DNA from: Thermoplasmatales archaeon SG8-52-3
GTDB lineage: Archaea; Thermoplasmatota; E2; DHVEG-1
Length of the DNA stretch: 64,000 nucleotides
Direction: 5' to 3'
Assembly: GCA_001595915.1 (NCBI GenBank)
Contig: LSSG01000053.1
Location: forward strand, 3,416-67,415
Part shown: positions 678 to 58,818 of the stretch, piece by piece
Layout: each line of letters begins with the position of its first letter
How positions within the stretch are numbered: the stretch's first letter is position 1
Made by a program: the position numbers and the translations under genes
Notes under the pieces: generated by a model
Databases searched by the model: none
Seen by the model: the letters and a program-made list of their open reading frames with translations, nothing else
Told to the model about the DNA's origin: nothing

Positions 678-1973
678 TTATTTTACAATTCTTTTAAAAT
701 TTATTTTAAACTTAAATTTAGGATATATATCAAATTTAATATCAATTTTTTTTCTAAAATAATGTGAATCAAAACTTGATAATAAACCCAATTTATTTTT
801 TGTTTTTTCAAAATTGATTTTTAAGGAATTATATCCAATAGGTTTTAACAATCTATGAGATTCAATTTTGGAAAATCCTTTAAGAATAATTTTCTTTTTA
901 CAATCATTATAATAACCAGATATTTTACAAGGTACTTCAGATATTAAAAAACCAAGTAGATTTTTTTCAATAGTTGCTTCAGTTATATCTTCAGAACTTT
1001 CAGAAAGATTTTTTATGTTCAAAAAAAGAGTTTCATTTTCTTTTTTTGCAATAATTTGAAGTTCAATTGGATAATAAAAATCATATTTCTTTAAATATTT
1101 CATTTTTTTGTATTTGAATTGTATATTACTAAATTCAGTATAATTTTTTCCATCCTTTGAAAAAATCAAAATTCCAGTCCCAATTCCATCCATAATCCAA
1201 AACATCATATTTCCAAAAAAAATGCTCCATTCATTATCTAAAACAGCCCAAATCCAATCATATCCTGGAGGTCTATTATTGGTGCTAAACGTTATTGAAT
1301 TAGGAATTTTTAAATCCTGATTACGTAACCAATTTAAAATTAGTTTAAGATAAGTAGAAATTGTTTTTTTTAAAGATACTTTAGAAGAAAAAATAGAAAT
1401 ATATGAAAAATTTCCCCAAATATGTTCAAAATATCCTTTCCCTTCTAAGGTAAACTTGTTATTATTTATTTTAATATATCCCAATATTTTATTTTTTGGA
1501 ATAAAACCATATTCAAAATATCCTAAATTCCATGGAAGTGATCCATTTGTTATTTTTTGAGCAACCCAGTAAGGTAATGAATTTGAATGGAATTTTAAAT
1601 TTAAGTTTATATTATTGTCTAAATCAAAAAAATACATTTTGTAATTAGGATAAGATCCAGTAATATACGATTTCTCATATTTAATATTAAAAAATTCTTT
1701 TTCTGTATCTAACTTATTTTTATCTTTCAATGAACTGTATTTATAAATTTTATTATTATCTAAATCAAAAATAGATATTGAATATGATGTCCATAATGTT
1801 TTATCCCTACCAATACCCTGAAAAATTGTTGATTTAAAACAAAAATTTTTATTGTTTTCAATTGTTTTAAAAAATCCTTCTGCACACCACCATTCTTTTG
1901 TACAAGGATAATATTCTTTTTCGAATTTTTTAGCCAAATTAAATTTCTTTTCTTTTAACATTGGCATAACCAC
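678..1973 (-). CDS. Hypothetical protein (431 aa), possibly CrtC/AttH-like lipocalin fold
   Basis: Long ORF with an N-terminal EWW(C) motif reminiscent of the EWWY motif of hydroxyneurosporene-synthase/AttH-like proteins. The assignment is weak. Confidence 0.3.
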   Translation of the reverse strand: MVMPMLKEKKFNLAKKFEKEYYPCTKEWWCAEGFFKTIENNKNFCFKSTIFQGIGRDKTLWTSYSISIFDLDNNKIYKYSSLKDKNKLDTEKEFFNIKYEKSYITGSYPNYKMYFFDLDNNINLNLKFHSNSLPYWVAQKITNGSLPWNLGYFEYGFIPKNKILGYIKINNNKFTLEGKGYFEHIWGNFSYISIFSSKVSLKKTISTYLKLILNWLRNQDLKIPNSITFSTNNRPPGYDWIWAVLDNEWSIFFGNMMFWIMDGIGTGILIFSKDGKNYTEFSNIQFKYKKMKYLKKYDFYYPIELQIIAKKENETLFLNIKNLSESSEDITEATIEKNLLGFLISEVPCKISGYYNDCKKKIILKGFSKIESHRLLKPIGYNSLKINFEKTKNKLGLLSSFDSHYFRKKIDIKFDIYPKFKFKINFKRIVK

Positions 1974-2042
1974 AGATTTTCAATTTGGACAGTTTTTCTA
2001 CTAATTTTAACTTTTAAATATTTTTTATAGATATGATAATCA

Positions 2043-3173
2043 CTAATATTCTGAAACATATTTTGCTATATTTACCCCATTAGTAATCCATGCTTTTTTC
2101 TCACAACAATATTTTAAGATTTTTTCATATAATTTAGTCCATTCTGAATCAAATAACCCTGCATAAGAAACTGGATAAGAAAAAGTCCAATTATGCCAAA
2201 GAATTGTTAAAACACCATTTAATTTTTCAATATTATCTATTAATTTTTTTAATAAAATCCAAGCTTCTTTTACACCAATTTTCATATATGAAAACATGGT
2301 AATATCTGCAACACAAACTGGAATTTCTAAAATATCAATTTTTTTATTTTGATTTAAATCATATGGAAAAAAAGGATGACACATTCCATTTCTGAAACCT
2401 ATCATGTCATAATATCCATAACTTGAATCATAAAAAAATCCTGCTTGATTTAATATTTCCCAAGTTCTTGGAATTTTAAATCTTAATATATGATTTCTAA
2501 CCCCAATAACTCTTTTTTTAGTAATTTTTTCTAACTTTTTTTTCTCTTTTTTTATTTTTTCTAAATCATCAAAACTATAAAATCCAGTATGGAGTCCAAT
2601 TTCACAATTATTGTCTATTATATCTAATATTTCATCCTGAATTTCATCTATGTGATATTTTTTACCAAAAATATCTTGCTGAGTTGCAAGAAAAAAGAAT
2701 GTTGAAATAGCATTGTATTTTTCTTCAAGATTGATAATTTTTTTAAAATTAATGTAAGGTTTTTCTTTTTTTAAATATGAAAAAATAAATTTTTTAGTAC
2801 CAAAATAATCCCTATGAAAGGGATAAGGAATAATTGAACGGAATAATTGTTTACCTGTAATATTTATGTCATCAACGTCATGGGATAAAAAAACTGCAAA
2901 TTTTTTTCCATCTTCATATTCAAAATTAAATCCTTTTTTAATTAAATATTCTGAAACAATTGGAATTAATACATTCTTTTGTTTTGTTAATTTATAAGAT
3001 AAAATATCATTTTTTATTGATTCACTTATCCTATATTCTTCTTTTTTTAAAAAAAGATTCCATATATCTTTGTCTTTTTTTAGTTCATTATGTATATAAT
3101 TCCAGTTTGGCTTTGAATTAGAATGTGAAGCCATCAAATTAGTAATATAACACATAATCAAATATTCTTTCAT
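2043..3173 (-). CDS. Polysaccharide deacetylase (CE4/NodB family)
   Basis: FLSHDVDD and LHTGFY motifs typical of the NodB homology domain. 376 aa. Confidence 0.6.
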   Translation of the reverse strand: MKEYLIMCYITNLMASHSNSKPNWNYIHNELKKDKDIWNLFLKKEEYRISESIKNDILSYKLTKQKNVLIPIVSEYLIKKGFNFEYEDGKKFAVFLSHDVDDINITGKQLFRSIIPYPFHRDYFGTKKFIFSYLKKEKPYINFKKIINLEEKYNAISTFFFLATQQDIFGKKYHIDEIQDEILDIIDNNCEIGLHTGFYSFDDLEKIKKEKKKLEKITKKRVIGVRNHILRFKIPRTWEILNQAGFFYDSSYGYYDMIGFRNGMCHPFFPYDLNQNKKIDILEIPVCVADITMFSYMKIGVKEAWILLKKLIDNIEKLNGVLTILWHNWTFSYPVSYAGLFDSEWTKLYEKILKYCCEKKAWITNGVNIAKYVSEY

Positions 3174-3259
3174 TTTTAATTTTTAAAAATCAAAAAATAT
3201 TGTTTCAATAAATCTTTAATAAAAGTATAAATAACATTATCTAATTTTAAAGACAAAAA

Positions 3260-4486
3260 ATGAAAAAGTATTCTATATTAATAAAAAGTGCTCACTGGAC
3301 ATGTTTACCAAATTTAATTTTTTGTTCAATGTTATATCAATATTTTTTAAAAAATGGTCATAGAATAACAAAAGAACCAACAAAAGCAGATTTTATTATA
3401 ATTAGTACCTGTGGAGTATTGACACAAATCGAAGATAAAACTATTGATCTATACAATAATTATAAAAATTTGAAACGAAAAGATGCTCAAATAATTATGT
3501 TTGGTTGCCTTTTAAAAACTAATAAAGAAAAAATAAAAAATTTAGATTTTTATCATATTGAATTCGAAGAGACTTATAAACTAGATTTATTGTTTTATTC
3601 AAAAATTAAGTTTGAAAAAATAAAACCAATTTGTGATGAAGAAACTAAGACTAAATTGCTTTATAATGAAAAAACCCATGGTTTTGTAAAAAGATATCCA
3701 TTTTTTTTAACTAAAATGTTTTTTCCATTTTCAAAAAAACTTAAGTTAAAATATAAAATAATAATTAAAGATCTTACTCATAAAGATAGAATTTTTGTTT
3801 TAATTAGTAGAGGTTGTATTAGTAATTGTAATTATTGTGTTATTAAAAAAGCCAAAGGACGATTAGTATCTAGAACTATTAAAGACATTTTAAATGACAT
3901 AGAATCAATATATGATCCAAAGAAAACACTTTTTTTAGTAGCCGATGACTGTGGTTGTTATGGATTTGATTTAAAAACAAATTTAATAGACTTAGTATAC
4001 AAAATAAATAAAAAATTTCCAAAAACAAAAATTGACTTAAATTATCTCAATCCAACAATTTTACAAAATGATGCTGATAAATATGTACAGTTATTCAAAG
4101 ATATTTCTTTTAGATATGTTATAGTACCTTTACAAAGTGGATCCAATAAAATAATTAAAAAAATGAATCGTAAATATGATGTTAAAAAAGTTTTAGCTTT
4201 TGCTGATAAAATTAAGAAAATATCTCCAGATACAATTCTATATGCACATTTTATTATAAACTATCCAGAAGAAAACATAATAGATTTTTTAAAAACTTTA
4301 ATTACATTATTTCATTTCGATGTTCCATTACCATTTATTTATACTCCAATGAAAGGAACAAATAGTTTTTCTACAATAAAAATAGTTTCAAAAATAAAAG
4401 GTAGATTAAAATGGTATGTTTTTATGAGCATTTCCAATATAGTTATTTTATTTAAAACAATTAAATATCAAAAATTAGTTGAATGA
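3260..4486 (+). CDS. Radical SAM enzyme with MiaB/MTTase-like N-terminal domain
   Basis: N-terminal TC...ADFIIISTCGV...GCL pattern (MTTase_N-like), then CxxxCxxC (GCISNCNYC). No obvious TRAM domain. Confidence 0.6.
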   Translation: MKKYSILIKSAHWTCLPNLIFCSMLYQYFLKNGHRITKEPTKADFIIISTCGVLTQIEDKTIDLYNNYKNLKRKDAQIIMFGCLLKTNKEKIKNLDFYHIEFEETYKLDLLFYSKIKFEKIKPICDEETKTKLLYNEKTHGFVKRYPFFLTKMFFPFSKKLKLKYKIIIKDLTHKDRIFVLISRGCISNCNYCVIKKAKGRLVSRTIKDILNDIESIYDPKKTLFLVADDCGCYGFDLKTNLIDLVYKINKKFPKTKIDLNYLNPTILQNDADKYVQLFKDISFRYVIVPLQSGSNKIIKKMNRKYDVKKVLAFADKIKKISPDTILYAHFIINYPEENIIDFLKTLITLFHFDVPLPFIYTPMKGTNSFSTIKIVSKIKGRLKWYVFMSISNIVILFKTIKYQKLVE

Positions 4487-14650: not shown

Positions 14651-14845
14651 ATGAAAATAGAAGTTTCGAATTTAACTTATAATAAATTAAAAACTATAAA
14701 AGAAAATGAGTTTGAAGGATATGATTTTGATATGATGATAAAATATCTATTAACATTTTATAACCAGAATAAAAAAAATCATCAATTATTTAAAAAGATG
14801 GAAAAAGAAGTAGAAAATCTTATGAAATTGGCAAAGGGAACTTAA
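14651..14845 (+). CDS. Hypothetical 64-aa protein
   Basis: ORF preceded by GAGGATAAA-ATG. No Cys. Function unknown. Confidence 0.3.
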   Translation: MKIEVSNLTYNKLKTIKENEFEGYDFDMMIKYLLTFYNQNKKNHQLFKKMEKEVENLMKLAKGT

Positions 14846-14960
14846 ATTTAGAAAAGATATCTTTAAACTTATTTTCAGATTATTTAGGATTTTTTATATA
14901 TCAGTTGCTATTGTAAGATTTAAATATCCTTTATATTATTTATTTTAGGGAGGCTTTCAT

Positions 14961-16763
14961 CTGAAAATAAACATTTATTCTAAAGGATTATCTGTTTTTT
15001 TCATTCTTACAATTATTTCCCCTATAACTGTTAGTTATATTGATAAGGATATGATGATCAATGTAAACTCCAATGATAAAACTGAGGTTAATAATATAAT
15101 AGCCAATGGTTTTTTGAATTATTCTAAAGGTGCAGCAGACTGGCTAATAAATGAATCTATTGAAATAGGAGACGGGTATAAATGGCCTGATTCAGTTGGT
15201 AGTTCTTATTACTATACTGATCTATATTATGGTTCACCAGGTATTGTTACATTATTTTCAGAACTATATAAAATAACAGGTAAGGATGAATATTTTCAAT
15301 ATACGGTTGGAGGGACAGAATGGTTGATTGAAAAAGCTATTTCTGAAGCAGGTGGTTATAAATGGCCTGAGAAGGAAGATTTACCTTTGTATTATACTGG
15401 ATTATATGTAGGAGCTGCTGGAACCGGTGAATCATTTCTCAATCTATATAAAACCCTATCAGACACATTTTATCTAGAATATGCTTCAGGAGCTGCTAAT
15501 TGGTTATTGAGTGTTGCAGTATTTGAAAATCAAAATGAATGTAAATGGCCAAGCTCTCAATATGCTACCGACTATTGTACTGATATTATATATGGAGCAG
15601 CTGGTATCGGCTTATTTTTATTGCAAATGTATGATTTGACAAATAACATAGAATATCTAAATTACTCACGATATGCAGGAAACTGGTTAATTAATCAAGC
15701 AAAACCTTCAGGTAGTGGTTATAAATGGGAGGTATCAAACAATTGTCCATATATTTATACAGGTTTTTCACATGGTGCTGCTGGAATTGGATATTTTCTT
15801 GCTAAATTATTTGAACATACAAATAACTCACAATTTCTCGAATATGCAAAAGGTGCTGCCCAGTGGCTAATTGATATTGCAGTTACCGAATCAGGTGGTT
15901 GTAAATGGTGGTCTAAAGAAGGTGATACTCCAAGTTATGCTACAGGATGGTGTCATGGTCCTGCTGGAACATGTTTGTTATTTATGAAACTCTATCAAAT
16001 TACCTCTGAAAATATTTATCTAACTTATGCAGAAATGGGTAGCACATGGCTTATTAGTCTTGCCATTCCAAGCGAAGGAGGATACAAATGGCCACATTAT
16101 CAAGGATCCCCAAATTATGATACAACCATTTGTCATGGAGCAGCTGGAATTGGTGATTTTTTTCTAAGGATGTCTGATCTTACAAATGAAGGTTTTTATT
16201 ATGACTATGCTAAAGGTGCAGCAGAATGGTTAAAGAGTGTTGCCGATACTTCTGCTGGAGATTATCGTTGGGCAACTTTTGGTTCATATTATACAGGTTT
16301 TTCTACAGGTACATCTGGGATAGGGCTCTTTTTCTTAAGAATCTATAATCCACCAGACAAACCTAATCTAGTTTGTTCTGGTAACCTAAATTGGGTAAAT
16401 GTGAAACCCAATTCAAAAATTATAGGTTATTTTCAAGTCGAAAATATTGGTGACCCTAATTCATTATTGTCTTGGGAGATAATTGAACGGCCAGAATGGG
16501 GTAATTGGTCATTTACTCCAGATAGTGGAATTGATTTAATGGCTAATGAAAAAATAAATATTACTGTAGAGTTAATTGCTCCAAACGAAAAAGAAAAGGC
16601 GTATACAGGTAAAGTAATCCTAGTTAATAGTGAAGATTTAAATGATACTTGCAGCATTGATGTGTCACTTAGTACACCAAAAAATAGAGGTGTATATCAA
16701 CTTTATTTCATACGATTGCTTGAACGTTTTATAATGCTTGAAAGACTGCTGAATCTTATATAA
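14961..16763 (+). CDS. LanC-like (lanthionine-synthetase-C-like) seven-repeat alpha-toroid protein with predicted N-terminal signal/anchor and C-terminal beta-sandwich module
   Basis: Seven ~58-aa repeats (YxxAxGAAxWL...GGYKWP...YTGxxHGAAGIG). The LanC Zn/catalytic motifs are in canonical order: GFSHGAAG, GWCHGPAG, TICHGAAG. A first ATG lies at 15051. An in-frame hydrophobic leader (KINIYSKGLSVFFILTIISPI) begins at CTG 14961, 7 nt after GGGAGG. Confidence 0.7.
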   Translation: MKINIYSKGLSVFFILTIISPITVSYIDKDMMINVNSNDKTEVNNIIANGFLNYSKGAADWLINESIEIGDGYKWPDSVGSSYYYTDLYYGSPGIVTLFSELYKITGKDEYFQYTVGGTEWLIEKAISEAGGYKWPEKEDLPLYYTGLYVGAAGTGESFLNLYKTLSDTFYLEYASGAANWLLSVAVFENQNECKWPSSQYATDYCTDIIYGAAGIGLFLLQMYDLTNNIEYLNYSRYAGNWLINQAKPSGSGYKWEVSNNCPYIYTGFSHGAAGIGYFLAKLFEHTNNSQFLEYAKGAAQWLIDIAVTESGGCKWWSKEGDTPSYATGWCHGPAGTCLLFMKLYQITSENIYLTYAEMGSTWLISLAIPSEGGYKWPHYQGSPNYDTTICHGAAGIGDFFLRMSDLTNEGFYYDYAKGAAEWLKSVADTSAGDYRWATFGSYYTGFSTGTSGIGLFFLRIYNPPDKPNLVCSGNLNWVNVKPNSKIIGYFQVENIGDPNSLLSWEIIERPEWGNWSFTPDSGIDLMANEKINITVELIAPNEKEKAYTGKVILVNSEDLNDTCSIDVSLSTPKNRGVYQLYFIRLLERFIMLERLLNLI

Positions 16764-16870: not shown

Positions 16871-17875
16871 TTATAAAAATATTTTTCTTGGTTTTACAAT
16901 AGTGCACTCAGCACATACTGGTATTTTATCAAACCTTTTAGAGTGAATTAATTTTCTTATATTTTGATATTTTTCACTTCTCCAGATTTCTTTTATTGAA
17001 GAATCTTTTACATTTCCAAGAATTATTCTTTTAGAATAATCATTACAGCATAATATTACATCACCATTTGCTAAAATATTAAAAATTGAGAAAAGATGAT
17101 GACATCTATGAACTAAATCTTTTCCAAAATTATATAATAGATTTTGGACAAAATTTGGATAATAATTATTCATTGCTAACTCATTAAAATTTGCTAAATC
17201 TCCACTTCTACTATTAATTCTTGTGAAATCAATTGGAATGCCTCTATTTTTCCAATAATTTTCAAAATCATAAATTTCTTTTAAATTTTTATTTTGAATT
17301 ACATAACCAACAGATATCCTTCCAGAATAATTAGAGTTTAATACACATTCAATATTTTCTAAAAGTTTCTTAAAATTTAGTTGTTTTCTAATTTCTTCAA
17401 AAGTTTCTCTTGTATATGCATCAATACTAAAATGAATCTCATCAACTTTTGAATTTTCAAGTTCTTTGATTTTGTTCTTGTTAAAAAGAGTTCCATTTGT
17501 GACAAGTGCTGTTGATAAATTATTATTTGTTAATTTTTTTGCAAGTTCTAATTTTTTAAAAATATCTTTATCAAGAAGAGGTTCATTTTGAAGATATAAC
17601 CATAACCAAATAAAATTACTATTTTCATCAGCAATTTCCTTTAAAATCTTGTTGTATAACTTATCAGACATTTTTTTTGTTTTTGAGTATTTCTGATAGC
17701 TCCTAGGACACATAATACATTTTCCATTACATGCATCAATTGTTTGAATTTGAAAAACTGATGGAAATTGATACACTTTCTTTGTAATATTATATTGAAA
17801 AATCCTACCTAATAATATAAAGAGATGCATATATTTTTTCAAGTATATATTAAATTTATAGTCTAATTGACTCAT
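16871..17875 (-). CDS. Radical SAM/SPASM-domain protein
   Basis: CNGKCIMC motif. C-terminal SPASM-like CCNDYS...GNVKDSSIKEIW...CAEC. Confidence 0.7.
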   Translation of the reverse strand: MSQLDYKFNIYLKKYMHLFILLGRIFQYNITKKVYQFPSVFQIQTIDACNGKCIMCPRSYQKYSKTKKMSDKLYNKILKEIADENSNFIWLWLYLQNEPLLDKDIFKKLELAKKLTNNNLSTALVTNGTLFNKNKIKELENSKVDEIHFSIDAYTRETFEEIRKQLNFKKLLENIECVLNSNYSGRISVGYVIQNKNLKEIYDFENYWKNRGIPIDFTRINSRSGDLANFNELAMNNYYPNFVQNLLYNFGKDLVHRCHHLFSIFNILANGDVILCCNDYSKRIILGNVKDSSIKEIWRSEKYQNIRKLIHSKRFDKIPVCAECTIVKPRKIFL

Positions 17876-17986
17876 AATTTCCGTAATAAAATAATTAGTT
17901 TGTTATAGACTCAATAAATTATTTATTTATTAATTAATTCATTTATTGAAGTAATATGCAATAGTTCTAAAGATAAAAGCAGATTA

Positions 17987-18059
17987 TGGGCCCGCCGAGA
18001 TTTGAACTCGGGTTACTACCACCCCAAGGTAGAAGGATGCCAAGCTACCCCACGGGCCC
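17987..18059 (-). tRNA. tRNA-Pro (anticodon GGG)
   Basis: Cloverleaf folded by hand: 7-bp acceptor GGGCCCG/CGGGCCC, T-loop TTCAAAT, anticodon loop TTGGGGT. GC-rich in an AT-rich background. No encoded CCA. Confidence 0.85.
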
Positions 18060-18187
18060 AGATTTTTATAAGCATAATTATCCTTCTAAAAAAACTTTCT
18101 TAAATTATAGTGTATTAATTGATTGCTAATTTATAATACTTTATTTGGAAAGACTTAATATTATACTCATAATAAAGATTATGCAAT

Positions 18188-31812: not shown

Positions 31813-33267
31813 CTAAATATGAATAATTCTTTTCGGTTTACCCTTTATTTCAGGAGGTAATTGACCAATATTGAATTGTGAAGTTGTGGTTTCGCAATAG
31901 AAATATTTTATACCATCATCTTCAACATACACTCCATGTTCACCCTCTAAATGAATTCCAACAGCAAGATGTCCAGAATTTTTATCTTCAAGTTTATAAA
32001 ACAATAATACTACGTCATAGCCTAATGCATCCATAATTGATGCATATAAAATTGCGGAATCTTCACAATCTCCATTTTTGTCAACCAAGGTCTCTACTGG
32101 AAACTTCCAATATTCAATACAACCCTGACTTTCATTATCAAGAGTATATTGAACATTTACTTGAACAAATCTTAGAATAAAATTTGCTGTTGTAATAATA
32201 TTGAATTTCTTATTATCTGCAAGATTCTTTAATTCAGTTGCAAAATCGATAATTACCTTTTCATTCGAAGTAACATATGCAGCCATTGCTTCATTTGGAA
32301 ATGGTTGATCTTGAGGAGATCTATCAATGTTTGCATTTGCATAGTTTTCATAAGTATCAGATGGAATACTCATTGAAAGTTTCCAATGGTTATTGCTAAA
32401 AAACCATTTATATATTCGATTTATGTTTTCATCACTTGATTTTGTTTCTTCTGATAAAATTATATCATACCATAATTTTCCTTTTGAACCTTCAATAAAT
32501 CCAGTTCCATCCATTATATTTTCTTTGTTATCAATTTGAATAATAAGAGTTGTCTTACTGTTTTCTTTGTTTATATCAATTATATCGTTACTTCCAAAAA
32601 TATCATAATCATACATTACAATTTCAATAATCGTATATGGTTTTTTTGTATCATCAGGAATATCATAGAAAATAGTTTCATGTTGTATTTCCTTTACTTT
32701 TTTGAGCATTACATTCCAACGTTTTCCATTATTATCAATTTTTTTAAAGCTCTCTCCATCAATAATAATATCAAAGTATACTTGAGCCCATTTTAAGATA
32801 TCAACTCTTGATGTTACCATGAATTTTTCTAAAATTATTTCAAAGGATAAATCTACATATGGGTTTATATCTGAATTATCTCCATAACCATCTTCATCTG
32901 TATCACTCCACTCATATGGGTTTTCTGGAAAAGTATCGCTATTATCCCCAACTCTATCTCCATCTGAATCCTTCCACTCATCCGGATCATTTGGAAAATC
33001 ATCTAACTCCAGAGGCGGAGAAGATGTACTATCTTTTTTGGTTTTTTCAGGATTCCATCGATCAGGATATCCATCATCATCTGAATCAACACTAGCAGCA
33101 GGATCATTTGGAAAATCATCTATTTCATCATGTACTCCGTCCTTATCTGAATCTGGTTTATTAGATATATCAGAACTAACAGAATTATTATCAAGAAAAG
33201 TACATCCAGTAAGTGTTGTGAGAATAATTATTGAAATAAATATTAAAGAAATTATTTTTGCTTTCAT
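31813..33267 (-). CDS. Lipoprotein with thrombospondin-type-3-like Ca-binding Asp repeats and C-terminal transglutaminase-like Cys-protease-like core
   Basis: Lipobox LTGC. Repeated DxDxDGxxDxxD (DSDKDGVHDEIDD, DSDDDGYPD, DSDGDRVGDNSD, DTDEDGYGDNSD). NGDCEDSAILYASIMDALGYD...H...D. Confidence 0.55.
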   Translation of the reverse strand: MKAKIISLIFISIIILTTLTGCTFLDNNSVSSDISNKPDSDKDGVHDEIDDFPNDPAASVDSDDDGYPDRWNPEKTKKDSTSSPPLELDDFPNDPDEWKDSDGDRVGDNSDTFPENPYEWSDTDEDGYGDNSDINPYVDLSFEIILEKFMVTSRVDILKWAQVYFDIIIDGESFKKIDNNGKRWNVMLKKVKEIQHETIFYDIPDDTKKPYTIIEIVMYDYDIFGSNDIIDINKENSKTTLIIQIDNKENIMDGTGFIEGSKGKLWYDIILSEETKSSDENINRIYKWFFSNNHWKLSMSIPSDTYENYANANIDRSPQDQPFPNEAMAAYVTSNEKVIIDFATELKNLADNKKFNIITTANFILRFVQVNVQYTLDNESQGCIEYWKFPVETLVDKNGDCEDSAILYASIMDALGYDVVLLFYKLEDKNSGHLAVGIHLEGEHGVYVEDDGIKYFYCETTTSQFNIGQLPPEIKGKPKRIIHI

Positions 33268-34150: not shown

Positions 34151-35287
34151 TCATTTGCCAATAAAATAACCAATAATATGATTTAGTTTTGGAAATTTCT
34201 CTATAAGTCTTTGAATCAATGAATTGTATGTTATTTTTGATCTTGGTGTTTTAAGATAAACATCAATTTCACAGAAGTTTGATGTATCATCTGAATTAAT
34301 GATTTTTATTTTTCCAATAAATTCCTCAGTTTTATTTGTAGGTGCCGTAACATTTACAGTAATCGTTACACATTCTCCTTCTTGTAAACCTTGACCGCTA
34401 TCTGGTTCAATTTCAAAAACTGCTCCTGGCCAATTTGGAGCTGATTCAAACTGCCAATTTAATATTGTGCCATTGTCTCCACAGTTACATATTTCAAATG
34501 TATCTGAAACTGTAGTTCCAGGTGGTACATCTTCCCAAGAAAGACTACCATCGCAACAGATAGCTGAATCACCTTCAGAAACCATAAAATCATCTACCAT
34601 TAAAAACCAAGAGTCATATGACACACAGTGAATTCCAATATATATGCTCTGGTCATCATAGGAGTCTAGATTATATGAATATTTTGTCCATTCTGTTGGT
34701 GGTTCAATATATGGTGCAGATGATATTATTGTAAAGCTTGTAGGATCTGTATCTGTTGTAGATACTCCAACTTCAATTCTTTCAATGTTATATTGATCTG
34801 AATAAGATTTCGCCCAAAAAGAAACAGTACCAAAATTATTTGGTTCTAATTGAGGAGTAATCAACCAATCATCATTTTGTAACGTATTTTGAACAGCCCA
34901 ACAAACTGTATATTTATCACCTGTATGAGCTAATAATTCAGGATCTTCTTGTGGTGGATCACATGCCAACGGATTGAAAATTAGAAATGCATATGCTTCA
35001 TTTTCATGTGTAAAATTAAATGCTGAATGACCCCATGTAAGTTCTCCATCTACATCAATATTAGTCCATGGTTGAAAATCTATTGAAAAATCTTCATATG
35101 CTTCGAAGCTATCCTCAAATAAAGCATTAGTTTGCAATATTTTTGGTTTATTAATGTTTGAGATAATATTTTTTGTTATTGATGAAATTTCAATTGCTTC
35201 TTTATTATCAGCAATAACAGCAGATGTTGAAAAAACCAATATAAAAGATATCAACAATACTGTATTTGCTTTTATAAAATTTTTCAT
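34151..35287 (-). CDS. Secreted protein: choice-of-anchor-J-like domain + C-terminal module shared with the LanC-like protein
   Basis: Signal peptide. WTNIDVDGE...DDWLITPQLEP...VSFWAK...ERIEVGVST resembles choice-of-anchor J. The last ~120 aa align with the tail of 14961..16763. Confidence 0.45.
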   Translation of the reverse strand: MKNFIKANTVLLISFILVFSTSAVIADNKEAIEISSITKNIISNINKPKILQTNALFEDSFEAYEDFSIDFQPWTNIDVDGELTWGHSAFNFTHENEAYAFLIFNPLACDPPQEDPELLAHTGDKYTVCWAVQNTLQNDDWLITPQLEPNNFGTVSFWAKSYSDQYNIERIEVGVSTTDTDPTSFTIISSAPYIEPPTEWTKYSYNLDSYDDQSIYIGIHCVSYDSWFLMVDDFMVSEGDSAICCDGSLSWEDVPPGTTVSDTFEICNCGDNGTILNWQFESAPNWPGAVFEIEPDSGQGLQEGECVTITVNVTAPTNKTEEFIGKIKIINSDDTSNFCEIDVYLKTPRSKITYNSLIQRLIEKFPKLNHIIGYFIGK

Positions 35288-44565: not shown

Positions 44566-44991
44566 TTATTTTGGCATTTTTGGGACATATTTTTCAATTT
44601 CTTCAGTTTTTCCTGCGTCCCAAATTGCTCTAATTGCTAATAGGGCTGCTGCTGGTGCTGCAAAGATTGCTATATAGCCTGTTAGGCTCTGGAAGAAATA
44701 AGCAAAATCTTGGTTTTGCACAAATCCCCAGGTTTCCCAATAGTTAGATGTTGCACCAATAACAACTAGTATCAATGCTCCTATCAAGAAAGTCGGTATT
44801 CTTTCATGGGTGATCTGTCCAACTGCAAAGAATGATAATACACCGACAATAAATCCAAGTACTCCTAGTATCATTGCAATATAGGCTTCAGTATCAGTAT
44901 ACCATCTTGCTCCAACGATAATTCCGGCTATTAAAGCGATAAGAACACCAAATAGAAACAACCAGCTACCTATTTTTCTGAATATTTCCAT
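44566..44991 (-). CDS. 141-aa integral membrane protein (paralog of 58393..58818)
   Basis: Start set at MEIFRKIGSW. Four TM helices. Shares KIGSW-FL-GVLIA, PTFL and AIW with the second copy. Confidence 0.5.
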   Translation of the reverse strand: MEIFRKIGSWLFLFGVLIALIAGIIVGARWYTDTEAYIAMILGVLGFIVGVLSFFAVGQITHERIPTFLIGALILVVIGATSNYWETWGFVQNQDFAYFFQSLTGYIAIFAAPAAALLAIRAIWDAGKTEEIEKYVPKMPK

Positions 44992-45304
44992 TTTTCCATC
45001 CCTTCTCCTATATTTTGTAATACTGCTAAGATATTGATTCATATATAAGATTTTAGTGTAAATGAATATGTACATAGATATGCAAGTGTATAGTGGAACT
45101 ATATATAGTCTGATATATCTAAAAAATGCTATTTTATCAAAATGGATTCTTTACATATTGATAAAATTATATGATATTTTTAAATAGTACTATTGACAAA
45201 TATTAACACGATTAAATGCTACGCAAAGATGAGGAAATGTAGATGGATATGATAAAAAATTTTAATCATAAAATTCTCATAAATTAGATTGAAGTAACTA
45301 CCTT

Positions 45305-47110: not shown

Positions 47111-48622
47111 CTATAAAATATTTCTTCTTATTCCAAATAATGATTTTATAAGAACAATTATCGGTATTATCTCAAGCCTTCCTATCCACATATTAAAAAT
47201 AAGCATTGTTTTTCCAATAGGTGACATATTGATATCAGTAATTCCTGCTGTTAAACCAACGTTACCTTGAGCTGAACATACTTCAAAAATTGAATTACTC
47301 AGAGAAATATTTTCTCCGGTTTGAATTATAACGATTACACCAGCAAAAAGTAATATAACCCACATAAATGAAATGATTGCTGCTTCATTTATCAAATCCA
47401 TTGCATCATCCTTTGATAAAGATTTTTGACCAAATTTATGAACAAAAACTCTTCTTGGAGTTGATATTGCTCTTTTAATTCTCCAACCAACTCCATTATA
47501 AAGTAAAATTGCTCGGAAAAGTTTAATTCCACCAGCAGTTGATCCAGCAGCTCCTCCAATAATCATTGCAACCGCAAGAATTAGTTTTCCTGATTCACTC
47601 CAATTTGTAAGGCTTTCAACTGAAGCAAAGCCTGTACAGGTTATTGCTGAAGTAAATTGAAATCCAGAATATTTCAAAGATAGTAAAATATCATCTCCAT
47701 AAAGATGTAAATTTACAAATGTTAAACCTATCACACCTAAAATTATTAATATAAATAGTGCTCTAAATTGAATATCTGAAAAAAACTTTTTTATTCTACC
47801 CTTTAATAAATCATAATGAGCAGCAAATGCAATTGCACCAAATATCATAAGAACTACTATGGCAATTTGACTTATTGTTCCAAAACTTGAGATACTATCA
47901 TCAGTTACTGAAAATCCACCAGTTGCAATCGCTGTCATTGCATGGTTTAGAGATTGCCAGGGATCCATTCCATCAGATAGAATAAAACCAATAACAGTCA
48001 ATACAATTATACCAATTATTGTAAAAAGCAGAAATATCCACCATATTGTTCTAACTGTAGAAATAATTGAAGGATGCATTTTTTGGTCGCGAGCTTCCCC
48101 TCTATATAAAACAAATGAACCAGTCCCAGGCCTAGCAAGAATCGATAAAGTAAGTACTATTACTCCAACGCCACCAACCCATTGAATCAGAGAACGCCAA
48201 AATTGTAGTGTAGCAGGAAGAAGATTTTCTTGAGCAACCATTGTAAGACCCGTTCCAGTCCAACCAGACATTGACTCAAAAAATGCTGATAAAGGTGCCA
48301 TAGTTGCTAGTGTAGCTTTATTATATGGTATTAACCAAAAGGGAATACTTCCAACAGCGGAAATAAAAATCCATCCTAGAGCAGCAGTGACCATTGCACT
48401 TTTAAAATTTGGAGGATCAGCATTTCTAAATATGTAAAACAGAGGTAATCCGATTCCAAAATATATTCCGCATGTAAGAAGAATAGGTCCTATTGCATCA
48501 AATGAACTATTAGAACCAAATTCACCAAAATAAATTGGAACAATCAAACAAAAGAGAGAAACAAATCCTACTATTATGAATATGCCTCCAAGTGATCTCA
48601 GGATACTTTTAATATCACTCAT
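47111..48622 (-). CDS. trkH: TrkH/KtrB-family K+ transporter
   Basis: Four M1-P-M2 repeats with Gly filter motifs (SGWTGTGLT, TGGFSVTD, CTGFASVE, GNVGLTAG). Confidence 0.65.
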   Translation of the reverse strand: MSDIKSILRSLGGIFIIVGFVSLFCLIVPIYFGEFGSNSSFDAIGPILLTCGIYFGIGLPLFYIFRNADPPNFKSAMVTAALGWIFISAVGSIPFWLIPYNKATLATMAPLSAFFESMSGWTGTGLTMVAQENLLPATLQFWRSLIQWVGGVGVIVLTLSILARPGTGSFVLYRGEARDQKMHPSIISTVRTIWWIFLLFTIIGIIVLTVIGFILSDGMDPWQSLNHAMTAIATGGFSVTDDSISSFGTISQIAIVVLMIFGAIAFAAHYDLLKGRIKKFFSDIQFRALFILIILGVIGLTFVNLHLYGDDILLSLKYSGFQFTSAITCTGFASVESLTNWSESGKLILAVAMIIGGAAGSTAGGIKLFRAILLYNGVGWRIKRAISTPRRVFVHKFGQKSLSKDDAMDLINEAAIISFMWVILLFAGVIVIIQTGENISLSNSIFEVCSAQGNVGLTAGITDINMSPIGKTMLIFNMWIGRLEIIPIIVLIKSLFGIRRNIL

Positions 48623-52302: not shown

Positions 52303-52457
52303 AGATACACCTTATAAATTTATGTATTAAAAATAGTTTTAATATAATTAATTTTCGAATTTGAAATAAATAGTTATTGTTATAAAAAAATTTTTTACAA
52401 AATATTAATATATTATTAAAATAACTTCTATATATACCTTTGATTAAAAGGTGTACT

Positions 52458-55400
52458 ATGCGAAAAAATAAGATATGGTTAGTTTATATTTCATTAATAC
52501 TGTTAATATTACCAGTGTTAACCATATCTTCATTATCTCAAGACGTTACTATACCAGAATGGAATAAGGCATGGTCATTTAAAGAAGAGATTATTCTACC
52601 AATATCAACATTCAGATCTCAAGCTATTTATCAACCAATAGATATGCGTATAGATTTTGTCAATCCATGCTGGGGAAAAAATGAAGATGAACACTCTATA
52701 AGAGTGTGCTCATGGGATGGAAGTACATGGCATGAATTAGAATCACAAATTTATGACATTGAATTCAAAGATCAAAATTATATATCTAATTGTAGAATCG
52801 TTTTTCTTGTTCCAAGTTTTGCAAATGGAAAAGAACTATATTTTGTATTCTATGATGATAGTGAAAAAGCATCAACAAAGTATGTAGATCATGTAAGTAT
52901 TGAAGACTCATATTATTTCTATGCTCCTATCTCAGGTGTTTCTATTGAAAGTGAATTCTACAAAATTTCTGAAGACGGATTTTGCATCTATGGAATTGGA
53001 CAAAAAGGAAAAATTATTTATCGTGGATTATCCCAAGGAATAATAAAAATGAAGCCAAATTCTATAGATTTTGATACAGCAAATTTTGACAATTTGGCTT
53101 CTTTCATTTTATCATATCAACATGGAAAGGATGATGAAGATGAGGTCTCATCTGACCAAGTTCTAGTATCAAAAGAAATCACTGTTGATGGAAATTTAAT
53201 GGTTGAGTTTAGAATTGTCAGTGAATCTAATAGTCAACATCTAAGAACAAATAATTTATACAAATATTATTACTGTCCTACAGATGAAAAAAGAATTTCT
53301 GTTCATGTTAGACATCAGGTTCTTAAAGAATCAGAAGTAACAGGAATTGAAAATGTTGATGGAAGATATGGAGTATTAGCTTCTGTTCAATCAAAAAGTG
53401 GAAGAATAAAAAGAATGCGTTTTGGAGAAATTTTACCATATATACATCTCTTTAGCGAAAATAACATTGTAAAAGAATACAGATTAAATATTGATCCAGA
53501 AAATTTGGAAAGAGAATGGGTAATTCCTTATACTGATGATTGCGACCTGGGAGAAGATGCTTGGATTTCTTATGATGAAGGTGAAACAGGAAAAGCTTTT
53601 GGAATAATATTTTCGTCAAATAAGAATATTGTTAAATCAGGTACTAATGAAAGAGATGGAATTCAAGTTACCTCTGCTGAAAGAGAATATTTAAAAATTC
53701 TTGGAACAGAAATTGATTATACTTCAATAAGTTTCGGAAGAAATTCATATGAAAAAGGTAGTAAACATGATTTAACAATTGCAGGAGATTTAGTAGTTGA
53801 ATATGATGCAGAATTTTATACATCAGAAACAGGTGGATTTAAAGAAGTAATTTCAGAATCAGAATATTTTCCAGATCTAATAAAATATCGTCATGAAGGT
53901 GAGGATGATTTTGAGAACGGTGAAAAAGATATACACACTTTAACAGTTTATCCACATTTATTAGGTAGAATAATAAACATTCCCTTTTTAAGAAGTATAT
54001 TTGATAGATTTACCTTATCAGCAGAATTATATCAAAAAGATCAATTATATTCAAAAGGCGAATATTTTAAACCAATTATTGGAAAACCATTATTCAAATT
54101 TATTAAAATTGCACCTGGAGATTATATTATAAAAATATTCAGAAGGATTGGCAATTATGAGAGAATTATTGGATTAAAACCTATAACTATTAATCATGAT
54201 GAATTTACTCGTATTTTTTGTACATGGCAAAATAAAATTAAAATCACTACAAGAAACCAAGAAAAAGCAAGAGTTGAAAATATTGAATTAACTTTATTAC
54301 AAAATAATTCAATTGTATTTGTTAATAAAACAAATCAAAATGAAGATATTTTTCTAAAAATACCATATAATCTCTTTGAAATGTATGTTTTAAAAGCATA
54401 TTATAAAGGTTTTAAGATATTTGATAAGGAAATTTCGAATAGAGAAAAAAATATTGATATAATCTTAGATTTATATGATTTAAAAATAGAAGTCAAAGAT
54501 AAGTTAGGATTTTCACCAGGAGTTAATCTAAGACCAATATTAACTAGTTCTGAAATGGAAATTCTAAATGAAATAACTCCAAAAGAAGCTAGTAATGGCA
54601 TATTTATATTCAATAATCTACCTTCTGCAAAATATAAATTTCAAATAACTTACGGGCGATTTACTGACGAATTATTTATTGACGTTCCAGAGGACGGAGA
54701 CATAAATAATTTAAAATTTTCAGCTTTATTTGAGCTTAAAACTAAATTGTTAAATTCTAGAGGAAATATAATCAAAGATGAGAATTACAAAATAAATATT
54801 TTAAGAGATGGAGAAACTATATATGATAATATCTCCCCAGATAATCCATTGATAATGCCGCCTGGAAAATATACAATTCAAGCACATAATGATGATGAGT
54901 TAGTCGGAATAAAAGTAGTTGAATTAAGTAGTGATAAAGATATTAACATTGTTACAAAAATTAAACCCTTTCTTCCAATTTTGGTTACTGGTATTGTTTT
55001 ACTATTTATTTGTGAGATAGTTGTTTTACTTTTATTTAAAAAATTTTCGTTAAATACATTTTTAAAATTATTAGCTCTCGCACTGGTATTTCTTTCAATA
55101 TTTCAACCTTGGTGGACTTTGAATGGATATAATGATTCTACTTTTGCAGAGAAAAATACTGAAATGTTTATTGTTTCTGGAACAATGATAGAAAAAATCA
55201 AATATCAAGATGAAACATATCTTGAACTTGCAACCTTACCAGAAATGTTTACAGATTTTCTTGGTATTCTTCTAATAATAATATATTCAGGAATAATCTT
55301 ACTTAGCTTAAGTTTTATTCCAAATATTCTATTAAGAAGAAGATATTTTTTAGTATTAATATCAGCAAGTATTTTATTTTTACTTTTAGTTTCAATTGCA

Positions 55401-55631
55401 TTTTCTTATGGAATGTCTAAAATTACAGAGCTTACTTTGGGAAGTTTAAATGGTGAAGCTCCTCTTGATGTAATACTTCCAAATGGCGAAACAACATGTA
55501 TGCTTTCTAATTGGGGATTAGGGACAGGGTTTTATCTTTGTGTTCTTTCCTCAATTATTCTTCTAATTGCAGGAGTAATTGATTATATGAGAAGAAAAAA
55601 GTGGCCAAAGAAAATTTTGAGGATAATATAA
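52458..55631 (+). CDS. Large (about 1058 aa) exported protein with C-terminal polytopic membrane region
   Basis: Signal/anchor at the N-terminus, a long beta-rich ectodomain, and about 6 TM helices in the last 250 aa. No family recognised. Confidence 0.5.
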   Translation: MRKNKIWLVYISLILLILPVLTISSLSQDVTIPEWNKAWSFKEEIILPISTFRSQAIYQPIDMRIDFVNPCWGKNEDEHSIRVCSWDGSTWHELESQIYDIEFKDQNYISNCRIVFLVPSFANGKELYFVFYDDSEKASTKYVDHVSIEDSYYFYAPISGVSIESEFYKISEDGFCIYGIGQKGKIIYRGLSQGIIKMKPNSIDFDTANFDNLASFILSYQHGKDDEDEVSSDQVLVSKEITVDGNLMVEFRIVSESNSQHLRTNNLYKYYYCPTDEKRISVHVRHQVLKESEVTGIENVDGRYGVLASVQSKSGRIKRMRFGEILPYIHLFSENNIVKEYRLNIDPENLEREWVIPYTDDCDLGEDAWISYDEGETGKAFGIIFSSNKNIVKSGTNERDGIQVTSAEREYLKILGTEIDYTSISFGRNSYEKGSKHDLTIAGDLVVEYDAEFYTSETGGFKEVISESEYFPDLIKYRHEGEDDFENGEKDIHTLTVYPHLLGRIINIPFLRSIFDRFTLSAELYQKDQLYSKGEYFKPIIGKPLFKFIKIAPGDYIIKIFRRIGNYERIIGLKPITINHDEFTRIFCTWQNKIKITTRNQEKARVENIELTLLQNNSIVFVNKTNQNEDIFLKIPYNLFEMYVLKAYYKGFKIFDKEISNREKNIDIILDLYDLKIEVKDKLGFSPGVNLRPILTSSEMEILNEITPKEASNGIFIFNNLPSAKYKFQITYGRFTDELFIDVPEDGDINNLKFSALFELKTKLLNSRGNIIKDENYKINILRDGETIYDNISPDNPLIMPPGKYTIQAHNDDELVGIKVVELSSDKDINIVTKIKPFLPILVTGIVLLFICEIVVLLLFKKFSLNTFLKLLALALVFLSIFQPWWTLNGYNDSTFAEKNTEMFIVSGTMIEKIKYQDETYLELATLPEMFTDFLGILLIIIYSGIILLSLSFIPNILLRRRYFLVLISASILFLLLVSIAFSYGMSKITELTLGSLNGEAPLDVILPNGETTCMLSNWGLGTGFYLCVLSSIILLIAGVIDYMRRKKWPKKILRII

Positions 55632-58262: not shown

Positions 58263-58392
58263 TATCTTAATTTTTTTACTGTTATATAATAAAACAATAT
58301 TTCAATGTTTCTTTAAATAAAAAAACTAGAAAATTTTATAAATATTTATTTAATTCAAAAAGACAAAATAAATTTTGGTGGAGGAGAAGGAT

Positions 58393-58818
58393 ATGGCAAA
58401 AGATATTTATACCAAAATTGGAAGCTGGGCATTCCTGATTGGCGTTCTTATTGCAATATTGGTTGGTCTTTATACTGCATTTACAATAGAATCTGAAGGT
58501 TCAGTAATAAACTCATTTATTTTTACTGAAACAGGTGGTTGGGTAATATGGGTTCTTGTAATAATTGGTGCAATTGTTGGAATTTTATCTTTTATTGGAA
58601 AAGGTACTATTACATCAAAAGAAGGTCCTACTTTTTTAATGGCTGGAATTGCTCTACTTGTCATGGCCGGTACATTCTGGGGCTGGACTGATGCTATAAC
58701 AGGACCCTGGATAGGAGCTTTATTTGCAGGTATTTCAATATGCTTAGCAATATTTGTTGCTCCAATTATTGGACTATTATCAATAAAAGCTATTTGGGAG
58801 ATGGGAAGAGAAGTTTAA
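58393..58818 (+). CDS. 141-aa integral membrane protein (paralog of 44566..44991)
   Basis: Start at ATG 58393 after GGAGGAGAAGG. Same length and conserved blocks as the other copy. Confidence 0.5.
   Translation: MAKDIYTKIGSWAFLIGVLIAILVGLYTAFTIESEGSVINSFIFTETGGWVIWVLVIIGAIVGILSFIGKGTITSKEGPTFLMAGIALLVMAGTFWGWTDAITGPWIGALFAGISICLAIFVAPIIGLLSIKAIWEMGREV

Follow-up and report, generated by a model that had tools for sequence, protein, structure and literature searches.

Several prokaryotic systems mark exported proteins for the cell surface with a short C-terminal tag, among them LPXTG/sortase, PEP-CTERM/exosortase, PGF-CTERM/archaeosortase A, GlyGly-CTERM/rhombosortase and CGP-CTERM/archaeomyxosortase. 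Their signals are tripartite: a motif is followed by a hydrophobic segment of transmembrane (TM) length and then by a cluster of arginines (bioRxiv 10.1101/2023.06.07.544157). The C-terminal domain of the type IX secretion system of Bacteroidota (T9SS CTD; Por_Secre_tail, PF18962/TIGR04183) is a cassette bearing a beta-sandwich, found in dozens of copies per genome on Sec-exported proteins with diverse passengers (proteases, PKD domains and adhesins). The Escherichia coli penicillin-binding proteins PBP5 and PBP6 are Sec-exported enzymes that have no TM segment; a short C-terminal amphipathic helix keeps them at the cytoplasmic membrane, on its outer face. Helices of this type are single and poorly conserved in sequence. 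Here we describe a C-terminal ending shared by two proteins that are encoded in a 64,000-nucleotide window of contig LSSG01000053.1 from Thermoplasmatales archaeon SG8-52-3. The window is archaeal, with 27.6% G+C, and its source is a metagenome-assembled genome (MAG) among those of Thermoprofundales (MBG-D, for Marine Benthic Group D; PMC6461988).

We put at roughly 60% the probability that this ending serves as some kind of C-terminal signal for surface retention or sorting, specific to Thermoplasmatota. Judged from sequence, the proteins that carry it combine Sec-type signal peptides with a tail that occurs only at the C terminus, is independent of the preceding domain, is amphipathic and not TM in character, is restricted to one lineage and stands in the position of an anchor. 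As far as these features tell, it works like a C-terminal sorting domain, yet it is neither a tripartite signal nor a T9SS CTD.

Like the tripartite signals, the ending is a short tag on surface proteins with signal peptides, is multi-copy and lineage-specific, and is paired with ‘choice-of-anchor’ passengers. It has the first of their three parts, a short signature motif near the C terminus ((T/M)P(K/R)xK ... ERFPNAFPILR). Unlike them, it lacks the hydrophobic segment of TM length and the terminal Arg/Lys cluster, matches none of their hidden Markov models (HMMs) and has no cognate enzyme in view. It also resembles the T9SS CTD, as a multi-copy, lineage-restricted, sandwich-bearing cassette on Sec-exported proteins with diverse passengers, but archaea have neither an outer membrane nor a T9SS. 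In addition, the positional signal here is a helical tail of about 30 amino acids that follows a replaceable sandwich, and the T9SS CTD model has no match in either window protein or in 55 modules. The hydrophobic-moment profile of the tail is compatible with anchors of the PBP5/PBP6 type; however, the tail is a helix–turn–helix with a nearly invariant ERFPNAFPILR core across more than 1,000 protein families. In the literature we found no account of the motif, of an archaeosortase-type system in Thermoplasmatota or of LanC-like proteins with T9SS.

The shared ending, its two elements and its distribution

The first protein (protA) is encoded by an open reading frame (ORF) of 378 amino acids at 34151..35287 (−) and is annotated as a ‘hypothetical protein’ (KYK32011.1/AYK22_00180). 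The second (protB) is a 570-amino-acid ORF at 15051..16763 (+), identical to the ‘hypothetical protein’ AYK22_00095 save for one additional N-terminal methionine in the window ORF. Their C termini align over 130 amino acids with 35% identity, 57% positives and one two-residue gap (BLASTP E = 3e-25). The Smith–Waterman score of the two tails is 240, whereas 2,000 shuffled controls score 29.0 ± 5.0 with a maximum of 53 (z = 42), so that the full-length similarity of the endings, proposed in an earlier note made from the letters alone, stands far above chance. Neither tblastn nor a tail-only HMM run on all ORFs detected a third copy of the module in the window.

ProtA begins with a signal peptide read from the sequence, MKNFIKANTVLLISFILVFSTSAVIA (35210..35287, −; hydrophobic 12-mer with a mean Kyte–Doolittle value of 2.68). 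Its passenger is a choice-of-anchor J domain (34580..34897, −; amino acids 131–236), which meets the NCBIfam model NF038128 at 71.6 bits (E 8.2e-20) against a curated cut-off of 30 bits and thereby confirms the choice-of-anchor-like character seen in the earlier note; the match covers profile positions 54–162 of 162 and leaves the N-terminal third of the model unmatched. By NCBIfam naming, this family is defined through its pairing with alternative C-terminal anchors. There follow an immunoglobulin (Ig)-like beta-sandwich of a cysteine-rich subtype (CCDG...CNCG...C...C; 34250..34561, −; amino acids 243–346), supported by BLASTP to protB, AlphaFold2 (AF2) and Foldseek, and a terminal tail (34154..34249, −; amino acids 347–378) that consists of TPRSK and ITYNSLIQRLIEKF-PK-LNHIIGYFIGK and is matched by the tail-only HMM at E 2.5e-14. 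In protB, the passenger is a LanC-like (alpha/alpha) toroid (15216..16358, +; Pfam PF05147 and AF2). It is followed by an Ig-like beta-sandwich (16368..16673, +; amino acids 440–541; BLASTP and AF2 strands) and by the tail TPKNR and GVYQLYFIRLLERF-IM-LERLLNLI (16674..16760, +; amino acids 542–570; tail-only HMM E 1.5e-12).

The Ig-like domain is about 105 amino acids long and repeatable, and bears conserved cysteines in both its first strand and its last. AF2, run with a 55-sequence alignment, folds the protA module into a nine-strand beta-sandwich with a predicted local distance difference test score (pLDDT) of about 98, and the Ig strands of full-length protB occupy model residues 470–571 (pLDDT 83–93). 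Foldseek groups the sandwich with PapD-like, ASH and MSP Ig domains (E 4e-6 and weaker), with matches that include HYDIN, OCRL, Cep192 and the C-terminal Ig domains of Vibrio VesB and VesC; among the 50 matches listed, the TM-score normalized by query length is 0.39–0.62. The C-terminal domain of the protease VesB is thus Ig-like and of this fold class, and in VesB it directly precedes the GlyGly-CTERM tag. The Ig part falls below the gathering cut-off of every Pfam model, with sub-threshold matches only to CARDB, NPCBM_assoc and the HYDIN_VesB Ig. For CARDB and the HYDIN_VesB_CFA65-like Ig, the best E value per member is 1e-4 to 7e-4, and the protA ending reaches 15.8 to 18.1 bits where the cut-off is 25.5. 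Although it shares their fold class, the Ig part differs from the CARDB, HYDIN–VesB and PapD-like (ASH, MSP) domains in its own signature (CxGxLxW ... PxSG..L ... APxxK ... CxIDVxLxTP), in its conserved cysteines and in forming a large separate family. It is a known fold class with no curated family.

The tail, about 30 amino acids long, has the consensus (T/M)-P-(K/R)-x-(K/Q), a short linker and then [LF][LF]x[WR][LF][LF]-E-R-F-P-N-A-F-P-I-L-R-x-L-L-G-L. It is laid out as an amphipathic helix, a Pro-rich turn (‘ERFPNAFP’) and a second amphipathic helix. At the junction the T-P is invariant or nearly so, with MP or IP after PKD domains. The AF2 models give two short helices for protA (pLDDT 59–67) and helices at 577–589 and 591–599 for protB (pLDDT about 58); in both, the tail is unpacked against the Ig or LanC domain. 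The helices have hydrophobic moments of 0.40–0.66 and low mean hydrophobicity, and the beta-sandwich with a terminal amphipathic helix foreseen in the earlier note is therefore what the models contain. Tails are rich in aromatic and basic residues, with a median net charge of +2 and a median of four charged residues in the last 25 amino acids. The final residue is leucine in 40% of them, and the usual ending, R-x-L-L-G-L, has no basic cluster. Neither the module nor the tail has a Pfam model, and the tails do not match dockerin (PF00404) and lack its Asp/Asn-rich loops. Three modules and two isolated tails drew no NCBIfam match at E ≤ 10, although HMMER speed filters may hide very weak ones; the models without a match include the CTERM HMMs (PGF-, PEF-, CGP-, VPXXXP-CTERM and others).

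Word-indexed protein searches yielded only 4 and 19 matches and almost no names, and we therefore used an exhaustive HMMER search of a six-tail profile against 1.84 billion representative proteins. This census found 1,514 clusters (at 50% identity) at E ≤ 1e-3, of which 624 reach E ≤ 1e-30. We re-mapped positions in 156 sequences, comprising the best 150 matches, the first four and both window proteins. The final copy of the module ends a median of 2 amino acids from the C terminus and within 15 in 146 of them. Two or more copies occur in 31 proteins, and up to four Ig copies stand in tandem ahead of the tail in P0005. Internal and tandem copies span profile positions 1 to about 105 only; the final 30 or so positions are confined to the terminal copy.

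The tail-only HMM gave a concordant picture on the ORFs of 79 Thermoplasmatota genome loci, with 78 of 81 matches at the C terminus. The domain before the tail is Ig-like in 62 of these 78 and of another kind, mostly PKD, in the remaining 16 (for example, ...AKAKD..G.ES.W..L.VTMPKNK...LLERFPNAFPILRxLLGL). One LanC-like homologue, P0190, lacks an Ig domain altogether: its signal peptide and LanC-like domain are followed by two PKD domains and then the tail. Because internal copies stop at about position 105 and the tail also follows PKD, the positional signal belongs to the tail of about 30 amino acids. The earlier note had described a single module of about 110 amino acids with a C-terminal bias; the shared ending is real, but it comprises two separable elements, and the bias holds for the last 30 or so amino acids and not for the Ig-like part alone.

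All 80 of the best genome loci are from MAGs of Thermoplasmatota, in agreement with the lineage specificity proposed in the earlier note. There are several loci per genome, and paralogues with different passengers inside one MAG have the motif in common. The host archaea are uncultured. Tail genes often stand as tandem pairs with nearly identical tails and different passengers (L080, 97..1014 and 1071..2822; L081, 566..2251 and 2418..4094; also L083 and L036), which suggests local duplication or shuffling of the cassette.

The more than 1,500 clusters carry the ending on many different exported passenger domains, as the earlier note had anticipated. Among 103 full-length representatives we counted 51 Pfam families, each of a kind usual in proteins that are secreted or displayed at the surface; among them are PKD, FG-GAP, NosD/beta-helix, DUF7901, Peptidase_C1 and C10, PQQ and Kelch propellers, Cleaved_Adhesin and Laminin_G_3. 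A simple hydrophobicity test recognized a signal-peptide-like N terminus in 84 of 106 (about 79%) Met-starting proteins with at least 150 amino acids before the module.

The LanC-like enzyme and the endings of its orthologues

ProtB is a LanC-like protein, as had been proposed: it meets Pfam PF05147 (LANC_like) at 141.3 bits (E 3.7e-41; cut-off 23.2) over residues 56–436, and AF2 gives seven alpha/alpha repeats with pLDDT above 90. A ‘GGYKWP’ beta-hairpin is present in each of the seven repeats of the model. The putative zinc-site motifs SHGAAG, WCHGPAG and ICHGAAG (His, Cys...Cys-His) align with AHGMAG, WCHGAPG and ICHGTAG of human LANCL2 (6wq1) and are nearly invariant across 23 LanC-like homologues. 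The LanM, LanKC and LanL models of NCBIfam, for class II–IV lanthipeptide synthetases, score 148–152 bits against cut-offs of 304–650, because protB matches only their cyclase-like C-terminal part. Weak Pfam matches to GH88 and GH127 also occur in the subfamily, which may leave room for a glycosidase-like instead of a thiol-ene chemistry.

We retrieved LanC-like homologues with the full protB sequence and compared their endings. Among the top 20, at 65–100% identity, 19 have an ERFP-type tail; one of these proteins is named Thermoplasmatales. Bacteroidales homologues at 57–65% identity (P0191, P0192 and P0194) have a signal peptide and, in the exact position of the tail cassette, a T9SS CTD. 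PF18962 was found in the bacterial orthologues P0191 and P0227, and NCBI names P0192 a ‘T9SS type A sorting domain-containing protein’. The ending of a Gemmatimonadota homologue consists of an Ig domain and a dockerin. A TM helix followed by a Lys/Arg cluster closes five more homologues, of which three bear Asgard names (Helarchaeota for two, Thorarchaeota for one). The passenger itself is 46–65% identical to protB in bacteria and 33–39% in the two Helarchaeota, and members of the subfamily are spread across phyla (P0191–P0194, P0197, P0201, P0204, P0214 and P0222). The occurrence of one LanC-like passenger with each lineage's own surface anchor is the strongest evidence both for a role of the tail in surface retention and for an extracytoplasmic LanC-like subfamily. 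The 57–65% identity between Thermoplasmatota and Bacteroidales suggests gene transfer between domains.

As annotated, protB (MMINVNS...) has no signal peptide. Immediately upstream, a stretch of 90 nucleotides (14961..15050, +) is open and in frame with the ATG at 15051; it begins with CTG and encodes the signal peptide (M)KINIYSKGLSVFFILTIISPITVSYIDKD, and is the probable true 5′ end of the gene. We aligned DNA from five homologous loci of different samples, including the window, L086 (2890..3000) and L087–L089. The leaders share an order of elements: a TATA-like box, TTTAAATAT (14919..14927, +), about 20 nucleotides, a Shine–Dalgarno-like G(G/T)GAGG (GGGAGG in the window; 14948..14953, +), 7 nucleotides and the CTG. 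The box and the Shine–Dalgarno-like motif are conserved, the CTG is invariant in all five loci, and a signal-peptide-like translation follows it in each. An upstream TTG that is sometimes picked by gene callers is destroyed in the window (a 4-nucleotide gap and then TAG) and in L086 (TGA). Variable sites in the upstream signal-peptide region number 15, 10 and 11 at codon positions 1, 2 and 3. Because the frame is preserved, the translation has signal-peptide character and the Shine–Dalgarno–N7–CTG arrangement is invariant, we infer that protB probably has a conserved non-canonical CTG start codon and is exported. Other LanC-like homologues have ATG-initiated signal peptides. We also observed that gene callers begin at internal ATGs or at the upstream TTG, by which the signal peptide is lost or distorted. 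The placement of the LanC-like enzyme on the cell surface by the earlier note thus finds support in the orthologues that end in a T9SS CTD, dockerin or TM anchor, but the annotated ORF has no signal peptide and export hinges on the upstream CTG.

Convergent to the LanC-like gene is a gene for a radical SAM/SPASM protein at 16871..17875 (−) (Pfam 1e-18 and 7e-18), and upstream of it lies a 64-amino-acid ORF at 14651..14845 (+) that is a called gene in a JGI contig. The radical SAM/SPASM gene is probably unrelated, because it is not kept beside LanC-like homologues on other contigs. The small ORF has no Pfam match and no Cys/Ser/Thr-rich core and is unlike a lanthipeptide precursor. We rejected a cluster for ribosomally synthesized and post-translationally modified peptides formed by the LanC-like and radical SAM/SPASM genes: the neighbour is not conserved, the small ORF lacks such a core and the enzyme is predicted to be exported.

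Retention at the surface and competing explanations

Judged from their sequences, passengers such as proteases, adhesin-like repeats, choice-of-anchor J domains and the LanC-like enzyme are exported by Sec via N-terminal signal peptides, and we hypothesize that the tail would then hold them on the cell. The Ig-like sandwich would act as a rigid stalk or spacer that can be repeated in tandem or replaced by PKD. The tail would either dock on a conserved partner, whether a receptor or a sorting enzyme, or lie as a helical hairpin at the outer interface of the membrane; the retention of a motif of 12–16 residues across unrelated passengers favours protein recognition over generic lipid binding. 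Both window proteins, the LanC-like enzyme included, are predicted to be cell-surface proteins.

The surface-anchoring or sorting role put forward in the earlier note is accordingly favoured by the passengers, by the position of the tail and by the exchange of anchors among orthologues, whereas anchoring itself is something that we infer, and a number of observations weigh against it. The tail, which has no basic cluster, is too little hydrophobic for a TM anchor: the median of the best 19-residue Kyte–Doolittle window is 0.78, and just 3% of 134 tails come up to 1.6. The two window proteins themselves have tails (EKFPKLNHII and ERFIMLERLL) that depart from the ERFPNAFPILR consensus. The window proteins scanned contain no archaeosortase, exosortase, rhomboid or CPBP protease that we could see, and they include most of the multi-TM ones. 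In the latter, Pfam identifies only a TrkH transporter and weak OPT/DUF7139 matches (44566..45075 and 47111..48622) and finds nothing for the multi-TM proteins at 52440..55631 and 58375..58818; three more are annotated as SSF, OPT and ABC-2 families. Beside the 79 loci there is no recurrent candidate for a sorting enzyme, and clustering of neighbouring ORFs returned antisense shadows and unrelated families of surface proteins. The genome scan was built from eight close sequences with the pattern FPNAFPIL and is biased to that tail subtype, so that the uniformity within genomes and the lineage restriction are partly due to the way in which the loci were found. An obvious signal peptide is missing from about 20% of the members that seem complete (many of these look like fragments), and a few members have N termini of cytoplasmic type (receiver-like in P0042, nitroreductase-like in P0112 and helicase-like in P0044); the latter may be chimeric gene calls or truly exported versions of the enzymes. 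Finally, export of protB depends on the putative CTG start. As a separate observation, a 566-amino-acid gene that combines Nitroreductase and PKD occurs on the P0185 contig (1488..3188), close to a LanC-like homologue.

The alternative that survives best is a covalent sub-case of surface retention, in which the tail would be a cleavable signal for an undiscovered sortase-, archaeosortase- or PorU-like enzyme that cuts near (T/M)P(K/R)xK and transfers the protein to a lipid, a glycan or a component of the S-layer. The strong conservation of the motif across unrelated passengers fits this idea, as do the near-invariant junction (even after PKD, as MP or IP), a lineage-restricted, multi-copy distribution like that of other sorting systems and a position equal to that of the T9SS CTD in orthologues. 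However, all known membrane-embedded sorting enzymes take substrates that are presented by a TM segment and an Arg cluster (bioRxiv 10.1101/2023.06.07.544157), neither of which the tail has, and a candidate enzyme appears neither in the window nor recurrently beside the 79 loci. We regard cleavage as possible but rather unlikely.

Somewhat less probable again is a generic in-plane membrane anchor of the PBP5/PBP6 kind, by which the helical hairpin would lie, unaided by any protein partner, in the cytoplasmic (tetraether) membrane's outer face. The amphipathic helices, with their moments of 0.40–0.66 and low mean hydrophobicity, the aromatic and basic residues with a net positive charge, the flexible and unpacked tail of both AF2 models and the Sec signal peptides would all suit such an anchor. 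Yet amphipathic helices that bind lipid usually keep their physicochemical character and not their sequence, whereas here 12–16 residues with two prolines (FPNAFP) are nearly invariant over paralogues and genomes, which points to a specific binding site. Within surface retention, what is left beyond covalent processing and a pure lipid anchor would be non-covalent docking to a protein.

One particular form of docking, in which the tail of one protein binds the PapD/ASH/MSP-like Ig domain of another and builds a surface mesh of enzymes in the manner of cohesin and dockerin, seems to us highly improbable. It draws on the resemblance of the fold to peptide-binding ASH and MSP domains (the OCRL ASH domain, from a study of F&H-motif recognition, and Scs2 MSP), on the tandem Ig copies that precede some tails, P0005 having up to four, on the existence of tail-only proteins and on the true dockerin at the same position in one orthologue. 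Against it, in the AF2 models no tail docks in cis on the Ig domain of its own chain, and we found no anchored, tail-less ‘scaffoldin’ with many Ig copies of the family type; two candidates with 6–8 module matches (P0043 and P0054) were rejected as weak generic Ig matches in GC-rich, bacterial-looking proteins. Least probable of all is the reading of the shared region as a common Ig-like (CARDB/PapD-like) domain for adhesion or spacing, whose helices form a structural cap or an oligomerization element with no sorting role: the sub-threshold Ig matches, the Foldseek neighbours and the internal and tandem copies are what it would predict, but it is largely refuted by the extreme C-terminal position of 78 of 81 tails, the 16 tails that follow PKD or another domain, the unpacked helices of the AF2 models and the replacement of known anchors by the tail in orthologues.

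Returning to surface retention, we tentatively advance a more specific version, to which we give well under even odds: the ERFP tail would be the address tag of an undiscovered sorting or attachment system of Thermoprofundales and related Thermoplasmatota, neither tripartite nor TM, and read by a dedicated receptor or transpeptidase. If so, the system would be the functional equal of T9SS CTD/PorU or PGF-CTERM/archaeosortase. Thermoprofundales (MBG-D) are among the most widespread archaea of marine sediments and are thought to live on detrital protein by means of extracellular peptidases (PMC6461988). Such a tag would govern the surface display of exoenzymes, proteases included, for the breakdown of detrital protein in sediment. 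A single ending defines a very large family that has no Pfam or NCBIfam model and of which we found nothing in the literature. It would provide a sequence tag with which to list the surface proteome of these archaea straight from metagenomes, and a concrete target in the search for a partner or sorting machinery. It would also extend the C-terminal sorting signals of prokaryotes past the design of motif, TM helix and Arg cluster. For the LanC-like subfamily, an extracytoplasmic location in several phyla would be unexpected, since the family is known for cytoplasmic lanthipeptide cyclases and for LanCL glutathione transferases.

The gene at 31813..33267 (−) encodes an exported protein of 484 amino acids with a lipobox-like N terminus (LTGC), Asp-rich repeats of a Ca-binding-like type (DxDxDG...) and a transglutaminase-like DUF553. 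As this protein lacks the ERFP tail, at least one other mode of anchoring exists in the same genome. The multi-TM protein at 52440..55631 (+), which has no Pfam match at E ≤ 0.01, comprises 1,063 amino acids; it has a signal peptide, its extracytoplasmic region is large and five TM segments stand at its C-terminal end. Rfam gave no family at its gathering score anywhere in the window, and the sole tRNA is a tRNA-Pro (GGG) at 17986..18060 (−).

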